Source: Mobula birostris
Taxonomy: Eukaryota
DNA: 64,000 nt
NCBI RefSeq assembly: GCF_030028105.1
Contig: NC_092372.1
Location: forward strand, 160,400,058 to 160,464,057
Direction of reading: 5' to 3'
The notes under the pieces were generated by a model. That model did no database searches. It worked only from the letters and a program-made list of their open reading frames with translations, and was not told the origin of the DNA. The translations under genes and the position numbers were made by a program. Below, one piece after another: positions 15,523 through 60,935 of the stretch (the first letter of the stretch is position 1; each line of letters starts with the position of its first letter).

Positions 15523-16553
15523 GCACAATTAACCATATAGAATTCCAATGTCACAGCAGTAAGTGAGACCTAGATTGAAAAAAAGGAATGAGATCTAAGT
15601 ATATTCCTGGAGATAGGATGGTCAAGAATGTTAGGGAAAAGAAGCAAGTAGGGATATACCATTGTTAATTAATTTGAATATTGCTGGTCTGGAGAGTAAG
15701 CTGGAATGACCAAAGAGATGGATGTGTCTGTTTAGGATTAAAAAGCAATAAAGATGGAATTACATTACAGGCTGCCAACAAGTTTTCAGAAAAGCTACAG
15801 ATATGAAAACAAAAGCCCTACTGGGGTGACAACTATACAAATATATCCTGGGACAAAGAGAGGGAGGAGTTTCCACAATGTGTTCAGGAGAACTTCCTTG
15901 ATCAGTTTGCTTCTACTTTAGCAAAGAAGGGAGCATTGTTGGACTTGGATCAAGAAAATGTGGCAGAACAAGTGGAGCAAATATTACTTGGAGAAGCTAG
16001 AAGCAAACTGATCAAGAAAGTCCTCCTGAACACATTGTAGAAACTCCTCCCTCTCTTTGCCTCAGGATTTATTTGTATAGTTGTAGATATCACTCTGATA
16101 GGGCTTTTGTTTTCATATCTGTAGCTTCTCTGAAAACTTGCTCCTTAATGTCCTCCCTCAGCGCAGTTGGCAGCCTGTAATGTAATTCCATCTTTATTGC
16201 TTTTTAATCCTAAACAGACACATCCATCTCTTTGGTCATTCCAGCACACCATTACTCTCCAGATCAGCGATATTCAAATTAAACAACGATGGTACAACCC
16301 TGCTTTCTTCTTTTCCCTAATATTCTTGACAATCCTATCTCCAGCAATACATTTAGATCTCATTTCTTTTTTTTAAGCTAGGTCTCACATTGCTGTGACA
16401 TTGGAATTGTATATGGTTAATTATACTGTAGGTTTATGTAAATAAAGTAGCACAAAGCATCTGATGTTTAAGAACTGTAACAACTCATTTCTTTTACTTC
16501 AACCACTGAATATAAAGCACAGTAAAAGTACTTCACGTAATTACATCATTACA
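15393..16553. repeat. Long inverted repeat (arms ~15393-15915 and ~15998-16553, spacer ~82 bp)
   Basis: Direct reverse-complement comparison; 15700-15779 is the exact reverse complement of 16166-16245. Confidence 0.93.
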
Positions 16554-17080
16554 ATAAGATCATTAGACATAGGAGCAGAATTTGTCCATTTTGGCAATCG
16601 AGTCTGTTCCACCATTTCATCATGGCTGATCCTTTTTCCCTCTCTACCCTATTCTCTTGCCTTCCTCCCATAACTTTTCACCCCCAACTTGTCAAGCATT
16701 TATCAACTTCCACCTTAAATACACCCAATGACCTGACCTCATAGCTGCCTGTGGCAAGGAATTTCACAGATTTACCACCCTCCAGCTAAAGAAGTTCCTC
16801 CTCATCGCCACCCTAAATGGACTTCCCTCTATTCTGAGGTTGTGCCCTCTGGTCCCCCACTATAGGAAGCATCCTCTCCACATCTACTCTATTTGGGCTT
16901 TTCAACATACGATAAGTTTCAATGAGATCCCCCTCCCTCATTCTTCTAAATTCCAGTTACTATAGGCCCAGAGCCATCAAACATCCTCATATGTTAGTCC
17001 TTTCATTCCCGGGGTCATTCTCATGAGCTTCCTCTGAACCCTCTTCAATGTCAGCACATCTTTTCTTAGAAAAGGGGCCT
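16554..17080 (-). mobile_element. CR1 LINE 3' fragment
   Basis: Tail ataagatcattagacataggagcagaat; similar to 1-260 and 60175-60935. Confidence 0.8.
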
Positions 17081-17109: not shown

Positions 17110-17914
17110 ATAAACACGGAGACTGCTGGAAATACTCAGATCAGCTTGTGAAGCTGCCAGGAGGATGGGGGTGGAACAATGTCTCTAATATGATAGCGAG
17201 GGTGAGCATGGAGATAACCTGTAAACAAACTCAGCTGATCATTGGGTGAATGGGAACAGAAGGAGGGTGGGAGTATTGACAAAAGAACACTGGAGACACA
17301 TGAGACTGCAGATGCTGAAACCTGATGCAACACACAAAAAGCTGGAGGAACTCAGTGGGCACACAGCACTTATGGAGGGAAATGGACAGTCAAGGTTAAG
17401 GTCCTTCATCAGGATTGAAAAATAGTGGAGAGATAGCCAATATTAAAAGGTGAAGGGAAGGGGATTTGGAGTGACAGCTGGCAGGTAATTGGTGGATCCA
17501 GGTGAAGGGGTCATTGGCAGATGAGGGAATGGAGAGTGAGAAGAGCTCCTGAAGCTGGGAGGTGGTAGCTGAAAGTGATAAAGGTGAAATGTCGACTGTA
17601 CACGGAGATGTTGCCTGTCCTGCTGAGTATCTCCCCCAGTTCTTTTTTATTGGATTCCATCATCTTTAGGCCTTTATCACGTTCATCTAGCTGGGCTTGT
17701 CCCCGTACTTTGTATTTCACAACTCTTTTGTCCGTGTTCTTTTTGCCCATGTTCTCACTAACTGCTCCCATTCACAAATCAACCAGCTAATTTTGTTTAC
17801 AGCTTATTTCCATGATTACTCTGGCTTTAACCTATCAGAGACATCACCATTCCCCACTCCCTCCCTCCATCCATCTACTTTATTACCTGCTTTAGTCTCC
17901 TTTTTAGTTCTGAT
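17110..17914. repeat. Cluster of Penelope-like 3' region remnants in both orientations; the last continues at 20280-20365
   Basis: actgcagatgctg, gctggaggaactcag and ccttcatcagga on the minus strand; ttagttctgat...tgacctgacatattgac...ttgctgagta on the plus strand, split by a CR1. Confidence 0.65.
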
Positions 17915-20273: not shown

Positions 20274-22219
20274 ATTATATTATTGACCTGACATATTGAC
20301 ACTGTTTCTCGTCCCGCAGATATAACCTGACTTGCTGAGTATGTCCAGTATTTTCTGTTTTATCGTAGTGCAGTGCGGGAACAGGCCCTTTGGTCACAGC
20401 GTGATGGTACACTAAATAAGTGAATGACACCCAATGAAACTAATCAGCTCTGCGTCTGGTTTTGCAGCTCTTCTGCCCATGCTGCAAGAAACTGCAGGAA
20501 GTTGTGCTGAGCCACGCTCACATCATGAAAACCAGCTCCATGGACTGTATCTACATTTCTCAGTGCCTCAAATGTAATCAAAGAATTATATAGCATGGAA
20601 ACACAGCATTCACACCAACCAGTGGGAACCCTTCTGTATTGGTCTCTTCTCCCAGAACTTCAATACCAGGTGATTCAGGAATTCATCAAGATGATTCACG
20701 TGCTCATCCAAACACATCTTAAGTGTTGTCAAGTGACACAGCTTTTTTGTATAGAGTGTAAAGGAGAGCCAAGAGTGGACAACAGAACACTGAAAAATGT
20801 TGCTGGAGAGGTAGAACAAAGAAATGGTCGACAAACTGAATAATTATTTTGGATCAGTCTTCATTGTGGAAGACACCAGAGAGAGTCAGGGGGAAGAAGT
20901 GAGTGTAGTCACTACTACTAAAGCAGGGGTCCTTGCAAGGATTAAAGGTCTGAAAAGAGCAGTTCTGATGGGACAGGTCCCACCTGAAACATGTTGGCAC
21001 CAAGGTCATGGCCAATCACATAACTAGGGCTCTAGATATTGCTTTAAACTAAATAGAAGTGGGGGGCGGGGTTCAACAGCTTGGAAAAGTATTGATAAAT
21101 AGGAAGGAGAATGTAGGAAAGGTTAGACGTCTCCAAACTAAAGAATAAGAGAGGAAGTTTAGAAAGGGTTAAGAATTTAGTTTCCGGCAACATGGAGTGA
21201 AGGTGATGTATTCATTCACACAGTATACAAAATAAGATAGATGATTTTGTTCTGCAGCAAGAAATTGGCAGTATGATGCTGTGGGCATCACAGAGTCATG
21301 GCTAAAAGAAGATCACAGTTGGGAGTTTAACATCCAGGAATAAACTTCATACCAAAAGAACAGACAAGTGGGTGGCTTTGTTGGTAAAAAATGAAACCAT
21401 ATACTTAGAAAGATGTGATATAGAATCAGAAGGGTTAGTATTCTTGTGGGTAGAGTTGAGAAACTACAAGGGTAAAAGACCCTTCCGCAAATTTATATGC
21501 AGGCCTCCGAACTAGCCAGGATGTGGGATACAAATAGCAATGGACAATTGAAAAGCCATGTAAAAATGACATTTTTATGATGGTTATGGAGGAATTCAAT
21601 ATGTAGGTAGTTTGGAAAATCAAATTGGTGCTGAATCCCCGGAGAAGGAATTTGTGGAACGTCTATGAAATGTCTTTTAAGAGCAGATTGTGTTCGAGCC
21701 GTATGGGGAAAAGGAAATCCTGGATTGTGTTTTGTATAATGAACCAGATTTGATTACTGAGTTTAATGTAAAGGAACTCTTAGGAGGCAGTGATCATAAT
21801 TCATCCTGCAGTTTGAGAGGGAGAAGCTAAAATTAGATTTATCAGTATTAGTGCTGAGCAAAAGTTAAAATAGAGTTTGAGAGGGGAGCTGGCCAAATTT
21901 AATTCGAAAGGTAAACTAGCAAGGATGATGGTAGAGCAGCAAGGCTGGAGTTTCCGGGAGTAACTCAAAAGATGCAGGATTGGTTCATCCCAAAGAAGAA
22001 GAATCATTCTAAAGGGAGGATGCGGTAACTGTGGTTGACAAGCGAAGTCAAAGACAACAAAAAAGGCAAAAGGGAGGGCATACAATATAGCAAAAATTAG
22101 TGGGAAGCTAGAGGATTGGGAATCTATTAAAAACAACAGTAGGCAACTAAAATAGAAATGAGAAAAAAAATGAAATATGAAGGTAAGCTGACCAATAACA
22201 TAAAACAGGATAGTGAAAG

Positions 22220-24048
22220 AAGTAGGTTCAGGTGTAGCACTTGCGCTTACAGGCATAAGTGCCAGGTGGGAAGTCTGTGGGGAGGGACATGTGGACCAGG
22301 GAGTCGCGGAGGGACCGATCCCTGCGGAAAGCGGAGAGTGGTGGAGAGGGAAAAGTGTGCTTAATGGTTCACTATGGATGTCCAAACCCTATACACCTCC
22401 ATTCCCCATCAAGAAGGCCTCAAAGCCCTCCGCTATCTTCTGGATAATAGACCTCACCAGTACCCCACCACCACTACCCTCCTCCGGTTGGCAGAACTGG
22501 TTCTCACACTCAATAACTTCTCTTTTGGCTCTTCTCACTTTCTTCAGACTAAGGGTGTAGCTATGGGAACTCGCATGAGCTCTAGCTATGCCTGCCTCTT
22601 CGTTGGTTATGTGGAACAGTCTGTGCTCCAAACCTATTCTGGTACTGCTCCCCAACTTTTCCTTCGCTACATTGACGACTACATTGGTGCTGCTTCCTGC
22701 ACCCATGCTGAGCTCGTCAATTTCATCGACTTTACTTCTAACTTACACCCAGCCCTCAAATTCACTTGGTCTATCTCGGATACTTCTTTCCCCTTTCTCG
22801 ATCTCTCGGTCTCCATCTCTGGAGACAGACTGTCCACTGACATCTTCTACAAGCCCACTGACTCTCATAACTACCTCAACTATACCTTTTCCCACTCAAC
22901 CAAATGCAAAAATACCATTCCCTATTCCCAGTTCCTCTGTCTCCACCACATCTGCTCCGGGGATGAGGTTTTCCATTCTAGGACATCTCAAATGTCCTCT
23001 TTCGTTAAGGATCGTGGTTTCCTTTCTGCTGTCATCACTGACGCCCCCACCTGCATCTATTCCATTTCTCGCACTTCGGCTCTCACCCCATCCTCCCGCC
23101 ACCACAACAGGGACAGAGTTCCTCTTGTCCTCACCTAGCACCCCACCAGCCTCCGGATCTAGCACATTATCCTCCGCAACTTCCGCCACCTTCAACAGGA
23201 CCCCACCACTAAGCACATCTTTCCCTCTCCACCACTCTCCGCTTTCCGCAAGGATCGGTACCTCCCCACGGATCTCCCACCTGGCACTTATCCCTGTAAG
23301 CCCAAGTGCTACACCTGTCCCTACACCTCCTCTCTTGCCACCATTCAGGGCCCCAAACAGTCCTTCCAGGTGAGGCAACACTTCACTTGTGAGTCTGTTG
23401 GGGTCATCTATTGCATCCGGTGCTGCTGGTGTGGCCTGCTCTACATCGGTGAAACCCGACGCAGATTGGGGGACCGCTTCGTCGAGCGCCTCCGCTCAGT
23501 CCACCAAAACAGACAGGATCTCCCTGTAGCCACCCACTTCAACTCTGCTTCCCACTCCCATTCAGATATGTCCATACATGGCCTCCACTACTGCCATAAT
23601 GAGGCTAAACTCAGGTTGGAGGAGCAACACCTCATATACCGTCTAGGTAGTCTCCAGCCCTTTGGTATGAACATAGAATTCTCCAACTTCCGGTAATTCC
23701 CTCCCCTTCCCTTCCCCTATCCCTATGTCACTCTGCCCCCTCCCCCAGTTGCCTATCACCTCCCTCATAGTTCTGCCTCCTTCTACTATCCATTGTGTTT
23801 TCCCCTATTCTTTCTTCACCTTTCCTGCCTATCACCTCCCTGCCTCCCCTCCCCCACCCCTTTATCTTTACCCTTACTGGTTTTTCACCTGGAACCTACC
23901 AGCCTTCTCCTTCCCACTGTCCCCCACCTTCTTTATAGGGCCTCTGCCCCTTCCCTCTACAGTCCTGATGAAGGGTTCCAGCCCAAAACATCGACCGATC
24001 TTTTCCACAGATGCTGCCCGACCTGCTGAGTTCCTCCAGTGTGTTATG
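22220..24048 (+). mobile_element. Penelope-like retroelement (RT + GIY-YIG), 5'-truncated, with an inverted 5' segment
   Basis: RT 22374-23138 (MDVQTLYTSIPH, KGVAMGT, RYIDD, PFLD, FYKPTD). GIY-YIG endonuclease 23370-23696 (VIYCIRC..CGLLYIGET). In-frame stops between them. 13-bp TSD aggatagtgaaag at 22207-22219 and 24049-24061. Confidence 0.93.
23960..23997 (+). ncRNA. Minimal type I hammerhead-ribozyme relic in the PLE 3' region (core mutated)
   Basis: cagtc-CTGATGA-a-gggt-tcca-gccc-AAAA-catc-gaccg. CUGAUGA box intact, stems I and II present; GAAA and GUC altered by G>A at CpG positions. Confidence 0.7.
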
Positions 24049-24660
24049 AGGATAGTGAAAGTATTTTTAGATATATAAGGAGTGAACGAGAGGTAAGAGA
24101 ACTGGAAAAATGATACTGGAGAGGTAAGGATACGGAAACAAGAAATGGTGAACAAATTGAAAGTATTTTGTGTAAGTTTTTCCTGTGGAAGATTGGACAA
24201 GTTACTTGGACCAGATGGACTACACCCCAGGGTTCTGAAAGAAGTTGAAGAAGAGATTGTAGAGGAATTAGTAATGATCTAACAAGATTCACTAGGTTCT
24301 GGAATGGTTCCAGAGGGCTGAAAAATCTCGAAAGTAACTCCATCTTAAAGAACAGAGGGAGGCAAAAGATAGGAAATTTCACACCAATTAGCCTTACTTT
24401 AGCAGTTGGCAAGATGTTAGAGTCCATTATCAAGAATGAGGTTTTGGGTACTTGGAGGCACACAATAAAATAGGCATAGTTTCCTTCAGGGAAAATGTTG
24501 CCTGACAAATCTGTTGGCATTTTTTGAGGAAATAACAGGCAGTGGGAATAAAGGGGGCCATTTCTGGTTGGCTCTGGTGACTAGTGGTGTCCCTCTGGGC
24601 AGGGATCGGTATTGTGTCTGATAGTTTTCGCGTTATATTCCATAAAGACCTGCATTACAG

Positions 24661-32105: not shown

Positions 32106-32684
32106 GAGTTATCTTTTATTGACGATGCTGATATGATTGTGATTGAACTATCCACACAAATTTCTGGAGGAGCTCAGGAGGTCAGGCATTACCTCTGGAG
32201 GGAAATAAACAGGTGACATTTTGGCCCAAGACCCTACCATGGTTGCTGTATTCCTCCATCATTTTGTTTGTGTTGCTCAACACTTCCAACATCTGCAACA
32301 TCTCCTGTCTATGATGGCGATAGGCTGCGCGATCTGGGTGGGGGTTTTATTCCTGGAGGTACTCTTATCTTCAAAGGAGAATATATTCCAGAACGTCATC
32401 AGACCCCTAGGCAGAATGCTCAAAAGGTCAATGTCTTTAGAGGCTCAGTTTTTCATCAGCAGTCGAGGTAGAAATGTGTGACCCAATGAGGGAACACATG
32501 ATGATCATGCTCTCGTGCCTGGGCAGCCCTCCTCTTGAGGTCTCAGTCATCTGGAATATCAGACTCTTTAGTGCAGGATCATTCCAAGGGATCCCAGCAG
32601 ATCTCTGCTGCATCTCTCAGTTGTTTTCCACCAATGTATCAAGGAATCACGTGGGAAGATTCCTCACAAAGGGATGAATATACC

Positions 32685-36180: not shown

Positions 36181-36424
36181 CTGGATGTTTAATTTTACTT
36201 TATGGCCTTAACATAAAAAGTGAAGTCTTATACTTATTCGGAAGTGCCCGAGACAATGAATGCAACTGAAGTTCACAGGGCAAGGTCCTGCTTTGTAAAG
36301 GTCAGCAATGCACTGCATCATTACCAAGTTGCCTTCTGCCTATCCTAGCCCAATACCCAAAACAAAACTGGGTTAATAAAATGGCAAGCCACCCAGATCT
36401 GTTATAGAAAAATCCTGCCTGAGT

Positions 36425-36540
36425 CTTCCCCCTTCCTTACCAGTCCTGAACAAGGGTCTCAGCCCAAAATATTAACTGTTTATTCCTTTCCATAGATGCT
36501 TCCTGACCTGCTGAGTTCCTCCGGCATTTGGTGAGATTTG
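36425..36540 (+). repeat. Short PLE-terminus-like repeat with decayed hammerhead motif
   Basis: cagtcctgaacaagggtctcagcccaaaatattaactg...atagatgcttcctgacctgctgagttcctcc. Confidence 0.7.
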
Positions 36541-37627
36541 CTTCTGCTGGGTTAATTTCACTGATGTTTTTGATGATGTAGCAGAAAGTGTTGATGAAGA
36601 TAATGTGGTTACAGAGAACACGACTTTTCAAAAATAATCTGATAATTAGAATGTACAATCAGTGTGAGAAAAACTGAAACCTCCAAAATAAAAGTGTTAG
36701 AGGAGGCATAGATGCAAATTTGGTCAAGGGATAGAAAACAGAGAACATTTGGAATATAGCAGCAAACCAGAGGTGGTAAGGGTAGAGAGCCTGGTAAGAC
36801 AAGTAGACCCATGGAAGGTGCATCTCAATCTAAAAGTGAGGTTGTATACTTTGATGGAAAAGTGTGGCTTGTATTTATATGGCACCTTTCACAACCCCAA
36901 AATATCCCAAAGAATCTTGCAACAAATGTAAGTAAAACAGAACATGCCAGAAATATTCACCAGCTCTGATATATATGGAGGGAGGTAGAACTCTCTCTCG
37001 TTCTCTTTTCCACATATGCTGCTCAAATTGCTGAATATTTCCAGCATTTCCATTTAGTTTTGGATTTTCATCATCTGCAGTATTTTGCTATTGACATTGC
37101 TTTGAAGTCAAGTTCATTATCGAAGTATGTATCTGTTACCATATACTACCTTGTGATTCATTCTGAGTGCTGAAATAGAGGAAATAGAATAGCATTTCAA
37201 AAAGCTCTCCCAGCAAGTCATAACACCCAGGTAATCTGTTGGTAATGATGTTGTTTAAGGGCTGAATATTGGCAAGGCTGCCTCTTTATCCTTGAAATTG
37301 TCACAGGGGAACTTTCCTCTCTGCAATATTTGCTCCAAATTTACGACAGGGTCTCAGATGATACCTTTCTGTATTGCCAATTTATCATGCTTTCTAGTTG
37401 CACAGATGTTTGGGTCTTTTTACTTAAAATAATGTTCAAAATAAGGAACAGCTGCAGCATTCTCAAATACAACAATATTGTGATTCAGGTAAAGAGAACA
37501 CTACGTGCTCGCAGGTAACATTCTATCACAGTATTGTTCAGTGAAAAGAAATATTGCCTGCATTTTAAGGAACGATCATATTACTGAAGTGCCACATGAA
37601 TTTACTCCGTAATAAAATTTTTCTCAC

Positions 37628-58843: not shown

Positions 58844-58932
58844 CTGAAGGGTCTCGGCCCAAAACATCAACTGTACTCTTTTCCATAGATGCTGTCTGGC
58901 CTGCTGAATTCCTCCAGCATTTTGTGTGTGTT
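58844..58932 (+). repeat. Short PLE-terminus-like repeat with partial hammerhead motif
   Basis: ctgaagggtctcggcccaaaacatcaactg...atagatgctgtctggcctgctgaattcctccagcattttgtgtgtg. Confidence 0.75.
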
Positions 58933-60174: not shown

Positions 60175-60935
60175 TTAGACCATAAGACCATAACATGACG
60201 GAGCAAAATTAGGCCATTCAGGCCATCAAGTCCACTCCACCATTTCATTATGGCTGATCCCGGAGCCCACTCAACCCCATACACCTGCCCTCTCACCATA
60301 TCCCCTGATGCTGCAACCAATCAAGAATCCATCAACTTCTGCTTTAAATTGCCTCCACCACAGTCTGAGGCAGAGTATTCCACAGATTCACTATTCTCTA
60401 CCTAAAAAAATTCCTCCTTACTTCTGTTCTAAAAGGTCGCCACTGAATTTTGAGGCTGTGCCCTCTAGTTCTGGATACCCCAACCATAGGAAACATACTC
60501 TCAACATCCAACGTTGACTGTACCTCTCCCTAGAGATGCTGCCTGGCCTGCTGTGTTCACCAGCAGCTTTGATGTGTGTTGCTTGAATTTCCAGCATCTG
60601 CAGAATTCCCTGTGTTTGCGCTCTCAACATCCACCTTATTTAATCCTTTCAGCAGTCGGTAGGTTTCAATGAGTTCCCCACACATTCTAAATTCCAGTGA
60701 GTACAGAGCAAAAGCAGCTAAACGCTCCTCATATGTTAATCCCTTCGTTCCCATAATCATCCTCGTGACCTTCCTCTGAACTCTCCCCAATGACAATACA
60801 TCAAGTGTGGCCTGACTAGAGTCTTATAAAGCTTCAGCATTATCTCCTTTTTTAAAATATTCTATTCCCCTTGAAATAAATGCCAATGCTGCATTTGTCT
60901 TCTTTACCACAGACTATCCCTGTGAATTAACCTTG
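60175..60935 (-). mobile_element. CR1 3' fragment, interrupted at 60511-60620
   Basis: Tail agaccataagaccata; RVQRKVTRMI, YEERL, LYSLEFR remnants. Confidence 0.82.
60511..60620 (+). mobile_element. 110-bp non-autonomous PLE-terminus-like insertion with 13-bp TSD
   Basis: TSD ctctcaacatcca at 60498-60510 and 60621-60633. Body acgttgactg...agatgctgcctggcctgctg...ccagcatctgcag is homologous to 23988-24045. Confidence 0.85.

Follow-up and report, generated by a model that had tools for sequence, protein, structure and literature searches.

The 110-bp insert at positions 60511-60620 (plus strand) of the window, by which we mean the whole 64,000-nucleotide stretch of Mobula birostris DNA that was analysed, is a 5'-truncated copy of an EN+ PLE and works like one. 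Very probably, it corresponds to the final 110 bases of an abundant PLE that encodes an endonuclease, and was written by the element's own RT and GIY-YIG from uncut RNA. The initial annotation had described a retrozyme-like insertion that starts at the hammerhead core and stems from short RNAs bounded by the ribozyme. Truncated PLE ends of this kind number in the tens of thousands, and by itself the insert is of little importance. The family behind it displays a pile-up of 5' ends at the upstream edge of the hammerhead and coupled ends in its two-armed copies, and a short template class probably exists for this PLE subfamily.

The insert and its target site

The insert is located between two identical 13-mers on the plus strand, the left TSD copy at 60498-60510 and the right one at 60621-60633, and the repeat is not extendable on either side. 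By our own arithmetic, the chance of such identity exactly at both junctions is 4^-13 per placement. Upon deletion of the insert together with one TSD copy, the flanks align straight through the junction to a paralog at window positions 16551-17060 with 68-70% identity. This paralog holds a single copy of the target and represents the empty site. On the minus strand, the insert-free junction translates as a continuous ORF2 C-terminus. Paralog alignment and translation place the host, the C-terminal ORF2 region of a LINE, at 60179-60802 on the minus strand, opposite in orientation to the insert. The earlier reading of a 110-bp insert with a perfect 13-bp TSD inside a CR1 fragment is borne out by these data; we call the LINE CR1-like by its motif rather than by a library scan.

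Positions within the element are numbered relative to the predicted hammerhead cut, with +1 as the first base 3' of GUC. The motif model given in the accessible text of Cervera and De la Pena 2014 (PMC4209133) puts this cut between 60515 and 60516 on the plus strand. The insert begins with ACGTT-GACTG, confirming a start about 5 nt from the cut, at -5 or at -6, as the last TSD base also fits -6. It covers -5 to +105, the last 110 nt of the 3' UTR/pLTR in a PLE subfamily of high copy number, and is one-armed and 5'-truncated. Sequence, the fold of an intact family copy and the same motif model (PMC4209133) identify 60511-60520 (plus strand) as a hammerhead remnant composed of the ACGU palindrome and the 3' strand of helix I. 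The insert does not start at the hammerhead core as had been claimed: CUGANGA, helix II and the 5' strand of helix I are all missing from it, and CUGANGA is also absent from the 60 bases 5' of it. An Rfam scan of the window returned 0 matches at the gathering score, and the folding stability of the insert and of the family end is not unusual (z of -0.68 and -0.19, respectively). Further downstream, 60578-60584 (+63 to +69, plus strand) corresponds to the commonest start of inverted arms in two-armed family copies, the putative inner start of reverse transcription. The stretch from this inner start to the insert end (60578 to 60620, plus strand) constitutes the PLE 'tail'.

The source subfamily

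In the 4.0-Gb genome (G000), the best matches show 95-97% identity to the insert, and nearly all of them extend 5' through a complete hammerhead. Among its matches is the terminus of a copy with RT and GIY-YIG (L026:1501-1609), and seven differences separate it from the natural copy L098. An exact 32-base motif of the tail occurs 33,399 times in the genome, corresponding to at least 33,399 tail copies. The longest stretch shared among the loci, 2.6 kb common to L321 and L324, does not reach the start of the ORF. In L324, Pfam detects RVT_1 with an E value of 2.5e-4, below the curated cut-off, and GIY-YIG with 1.2e-4, at the cut-off. The insert is the 3' terminus of an element with RT as well as GIY-YIG at the C-terminus, the RT match being the one below cut-off. 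Its 3' end at +105 falls within the family mode of +100 to +105, where 101 of 129 direct arms end, and both this end and its TSD length agree with coding copies of its own subfamily.

A minimal hammerhead is predicted within the terminal repeat of the family, and its core is intact in 79 of the 105 copies that span it. In the minimum-energy fold of an intact family copy, the motif adopts a 5-bp helix I and a 4-bp helix II, and it carries an extra base after A9 and the ACGU palindrome. The minimal type I PLE hammerheads described in the accessible text of PMC4209133 are alike in all of these respects, with 5 bp in helix I, 4 bp in helix II, an extra base between 9 and 10.1 and a palindromic ACGU that replaces helix III. 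Unlike those motifs, the insert retains the last ~10 bases only, with cleavage being predicted. The same source describes metazoan PLE hammerheads as mostly single motifs of truncated PLEs, and reports pairs on opposite strands 100-700 bp apart in PLEs.

Canonical EN+ PLEs (Penelope/Poseidon, Neptune, Nematis) encode a C-terminal GIY-YIG, as summarized in the accessible account of Craig et al. 2021 (PMC8557442). The source family has in common with them an ORF with RT and GIY-YIG, frequent 5' truncation, a hammerhead in the terminal repeat and an inverted, 5'-truncated copy at the 5' end, with the 30-40 bp tail present on one arm; inverted 5' copies that lack this tail are indeed found in the family. 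Unlike the EN+ PLEs of that account, no full pLTR-ORF-pLTR tandem was found among the loci here (longest shared stretch 2.6 kb).

Homology of the insert to a PLE 3' terminus therefore holds for its own high-copy subfamily, but not for the coding PLE of the window (22220-24048, plus strand), which was rejected as the source: it matches the insert over 25 bp only (88%) and belongs to a different subfamily, with 75% identity to L324 over 1391 nt. This 5'-truncated coding PLE does have a TSD of the same 13 bp, as the initial annotation stated, at 22207-22219 and 24049-24061. Its 5' end bears an inverted ORF piece of 147 bp, its hammerhead near 23961-23997 is decayed (core AAAAC-ATC), and it terminates close to the inner start site, lacking the tail. 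Decayed 3'-end fragments of other PLE subfamilies are found at 36424-36543, 58845-58932, 17306-17396 (minus strand), 17549-17640, 32147-32199 (minus strand) and 37004-37080; the one at 58845-58932 starts near the hammerhead edge.

TSDs and 5' ends across the family

Family statistics were collected on 200 copies picked by the tail alone, namely the first 100 that matched it exactly and the first 100 among 434 with one variant. Half of these copies lie within the first 8 Mb of a single contig, and anchoring on the tail leaves out copies primed at +66. The first 60 loci, selected by best match, were kept out of all counts. TSDs were called in 135 of the 200 copies, 106 of them 12-16 bp long, and none was called in the other 65. 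Perfect TSDs average 13.1 bp both in 56 short and in 23 ORF-reaching copies (p = 0.43), so that the comparison of TSD lengths came out as the initial annotation had expected. Together with a 3' end common to ORF-bearing copies, this equality supports its proposal of insertion by PLE machinery, but does not separate action in cis from action in trans. All 9 polymorphic columns are common to 101 short and 81 long copies in like proportions (p between 0.22 and 0.74), and divergence is 2.6% in both.

For the 5' ends, three of the 200 copies extended beyond the retrieved sequence and were excluded, leaving n = 197. The plot of 5' ends, a check put forward with the original claim, displays no peak at -5 or in the cut window; the peak is found at -41 to -18, the 5' edge of the hammerhead. 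In this region 58 copies start, as compared with 7 at -10 to +5 and a single one at -10 to -1. Per nucleotide, the stop rate at -10 to +5 (0.0030) is similar to that at +11 to +60 (0.0027; p = 0.82, 197 copies), and it rises to 0.0196 at -41 to -18 (58 copies, p = 3e-18). When the ends were called anew against a cleaner natural copy free of CpG decay, 8 starts fell in the cut window, 58 at -41 to -18 and none at -7 to -4. Stops are concentrated where helix I (-33 to -29) and helix II (-20) have their 5' edges, the -33 to -29 peak being a feature of the 200-copy sample, as the genome-wide pattern is not subfamily-specific. Truncation in the family is not random, though plain 5' truncation, the simple alternative that the annotation had offered, fits the focal insert.

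Genome-wide, junction patterns gave 680 counts at -9 to -5 and 531 at -4 to +1, versus 1157 in the control interval at -18 to -14, with pattern recoveries of 0.50, 0.46 and 0.44, respectively. The 680 junctions amount to 1.0% of the 66,870 arms that match -5 to +15, uncorrected for a pattern detection of ~40% (our own estimate). Of the 75 junction loci that were examined, most represent small deletions or the inner joints of two-armed insertions. Among 69 resolved one-armed copies there is no start at -15 to -1, and none of 30 junction loci at -9 to -5 is a one-armed copy ending near +104. The exact form of the insert is hence rare among one-armed copies, and its insertion route is deduced from two-armed relatives.

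Exactly at +1 start 11 of the first 30 junctions in the -4 to +1 window, where ~6 would be expected under uniformity. Most of these are inverted junctions with 1-4 bases common to the other arm. They represent a possible small excess, which might reflect a minor class of cleaved templates. In L187, L188 and L191, an inverted arm ending at about -32 overlaps a direct arm starting at +1 via helix I bases, a recurrent junction that could reflect either microhomology or a cleaved template.

Two-armed copies and coupled arm ends

An inverted 5' piece is present in 125 of the 200 copies. In 101 of these it starts at +55 to +76, and in 75 at +63 to +69, ~35 nt inside the 3' end; 28 of the 101 inverted arms run out at -35 to -26. 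Both arms reach -15 in 58 two-armed copies, which fall into two groups: in 26 both arms stop within -15 to -50, in 29 both pass, and just 3 are mixed (Fisher p = 6e-13). Within the 29 long pairs, the end positions of the two arms are uncorrelated (rho 0.04). The coupled stops, taken with these uncorrelated ends, indicate that the boundary is a property of the insertion event and not of each polymerase. In 38 of the 44 two-armed copies with one arm stopping 3' of -15, the other arm ends within -50.

Several individual loci illustrate the variety of these structures. L120, L125, L248, L261 and L301 are palindromic insertions of ~220 bp with both arms stopping at -26 to -35. L152, L159, L164-L166, L172, L182 and L184, some with TSDs of 7-12 bp, appear one-armed and end at +60 to +72, and were apparently primed at the inner site only. 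In L095 (oriented 2212-2706), an inverted arm extends to -33 and is followed by 5 extra bases and then ~495 bp of far-upstream ORF sequence, which is a template jump within one TSD-bounded insertion. Short local tandem arrays of hammerhead-adjacent pieces occur at arm junctions of L167, L168-L170 and L203-L204, with units of about -19 to +21, -8 to +25 and +1 to +31. Six matches of one internally deleted copy, spaced 53-69 kb apart on G000:C3:198563877-198881208, suggest a large tandem segmental array.

In other subfamilies, ~8 of some 33 core-bearing copies among the loci collected also start at the hammerhead edge by a rough reading of our own. In most of their UTR-bearing copies, helix I is immediately preceded by a pyrimidine tract and AG, an arrangement similar to a 3' splice acceptor. 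In contigs of four sequencing runs, loose ends pile up at -32/-31, +66 to +68 and +102/+103; these contigs mix subfamilies and may include the assembled sample, and the piles were therefore not counted as independent. One contig in each of two runs (X1 and X2) carries a junction leading from +74 to +1 (L098:221-294), with 0 matches in G000 for the exact pattern with a gap of 0-6 bases, and it is too weak to be read as a circle.

Proposed origin of the insert

The 5-6 bases that the insert retains 5' of the cut show that its template ran uninterrupted through the cut site. We hold with high confidence that priming took place at the outer site, that copying proceeded through an uncut hammerhead, and that the copy stopped or was trimmed at -5/-6. 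The closest experimental model is the Poseidon element of Anolis carolinensis (PAc; Frangieh et al. 2024, PMC11167929), whose accessible report describes two internal priming sites in vitro, extension of both strands and use of uncut RNA. As in the source family, two RT starts bracket the tail of PAc. Both target strands are cut and extended there, uncut RNA is the dominant template, and the accessible report records no RNA reads ending at the cut; a genomic map of 5' ends is not part of it. PAc is a different family of the Poseidon clade, whereas the CxxC linker of the source subfamily tentatively suggests Neptune/Nematis.

By analogy with PAc (PMC11167929), the PLE protein would nick both target strands ~13 bp apart, and cDNA would be primed at internal RNA sites, the outer one in case of the insert, with the second site of the family near +66. 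The cDNA may have stopped early or been trimmed, and its joining to the target would then have involved no more than 1 base of microhomology. A start at -5 would have no special status. The template would most likely have belonged to a short class that never passes about -50, arising from source elements common to long copies, a step of which we are less sure. The partner rule of 38 in 44 makes an origin of the focal insert from the short class more likely, by analogy only. Its relatives mostly stop ~30 bases upstream of the cut and were hence likely copied from short, uncut RNAs. The proposal of short ribozyme-bounded RNAs survives in its first part, as a short class of templates is probable, but not in its second, as bounding by the cut is not supported (7 of 197 starts at -10 to +5).

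A short RNA class with a 5' end at about -45 to -28 is the simplest account of the coupled arm stops. We tentatively hypothesize that about half of the PLE insertions were copied from an RNA of ~135-150 nt or longer, with its 5' end just upstream of an uncut hammerhead, and that both strands were primed on that class at two fixed internal sites. On the same guarded footing, this 5' end could be a start of transcription in the terminal repeat, or the point where an exonuclease stopped at a ribozyme-protein complex. Putative promoters have been described in the pLTRs of rotifer PLEs (accessible text of PMC3846280).

Alternative explanations

A full-length PLE transcript truncated randomly from its 5' side, in the absence of any short class and with the pile-up near -30 produced by independent polymerase pauses at RNA or cDNA structure, would account for the focal insert without any extra assumption, as a background of ~0.003 per nt covers -5. 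Stops at the 5' edges of helices I and II are what cDNA snap-back or hairpin trimming would give, and the cDNA of L095 that reaches -33 goes on into far-upstream ORF sequence. Independent pauses, however, predict many mixed pairs, as opposed to the 3 found next to 26 pairs that both stop and 29 that both pass, and the lack of correlation between the ends of long pairs also speaks against them. We therefore regard this explanation as unlikely.

Slightly less likely still, the -30 boundary might reflect a block at the level of the event, or else a 3' splice site, on a long RNA, instead of a free RNA 5' end. In the block version, to which we give the same low weight, a protein bound to the polypyrimidine tract or the hammerhead would stop both cDNAs, and coupled arms are likewise expected if the block acts on a shared RNA. 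The pyrimidine tract ending in AG that adjoins helix I in other subfamilies fits this explanation, as does the intron of D. virilis Penelope, the end of which maps to the 5' end of helix I (accessible text of PMC4209133). Against it, one-armed copies join the target directly or via a few extra bases with no upstream exon, and their ends spread over -41 to -18 instead of falling on one base, with many keeping the AG. Capture of a spliced exon at -30 was rejected, given one-armed copies without an upstream exon. Short RNA, block and splice acceptor stay rivals that genomic data do not separate.

Non-LTR retrozymes, as described in the accessible parts of Cervera and De la Pena 2020 (PMC7229834) and Li et al. 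(bioRxiv 10.64898/2026.07.22.740005), resemble the insert in being short and non-coding, in their kinship to PLE terminal repeats and in TSDs of >4 bp. Unlike them, the insert has no hammerhead, tandem units, ends at the cut site or separate lineage: the unit lacks a complete type I hammerhead, a single unit instead of at least two tandem hammerhead units lies between the TSDs, self-cleavage does not set its ends (apart from the possible small excess at exactly +1), and no non-autonomous lineage amplifies independently of the coding element. A monomer that is non-autonomous, bounded by the ribozyme and copied in trans, with circular or multimeric RNA as its template, would explain the bases 5' of the cut but is highly improbable: the start 5-6 nt from the predicted cut, the 11 of 30 junctions at +1, the intact cores in 79 of 105 copies and the relation of animal retrozymes to PLE pLTRs (bioRxiv 10.64898/2026.07.22.740005) are set against an insert that lacks the core and has the PLE tail rather than a second cut site as its 3' end, 5' ends with no peak in the cut window, and short copies that form no lineage of their own. 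A head-to-tail tandem unit upstream was found in 0 of 200 copies, which leaves the circular or multimeric template without support, and retrozyme identity failed on tandem organisation and on end position.

Implications for PLE biology

The accessible account of EN+ PLEs (PMC8557442) makes no mention of a pile-up at the hammerhead edge or of arm coupling, and neither was found in the freely accessible papers and passages on PLEs that were consulted. The family statistics agree with the in vitro result that uncut RNA serves as the template, and they bear on two open points of PLE biology, the role of the hammerhead and the origin of inverted, tail-less arms. The coupling of arm ends leads to a prediction that is cheap to test, namely RNA 5' ends or a shared block at -45 to -28. 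If the short-RNA reading is true, the hammerhead would act as a boundary or assembly element and not as a cutter, and genomic copies in their tens of thousands would be a record of two-strand PLE integration in vivo.
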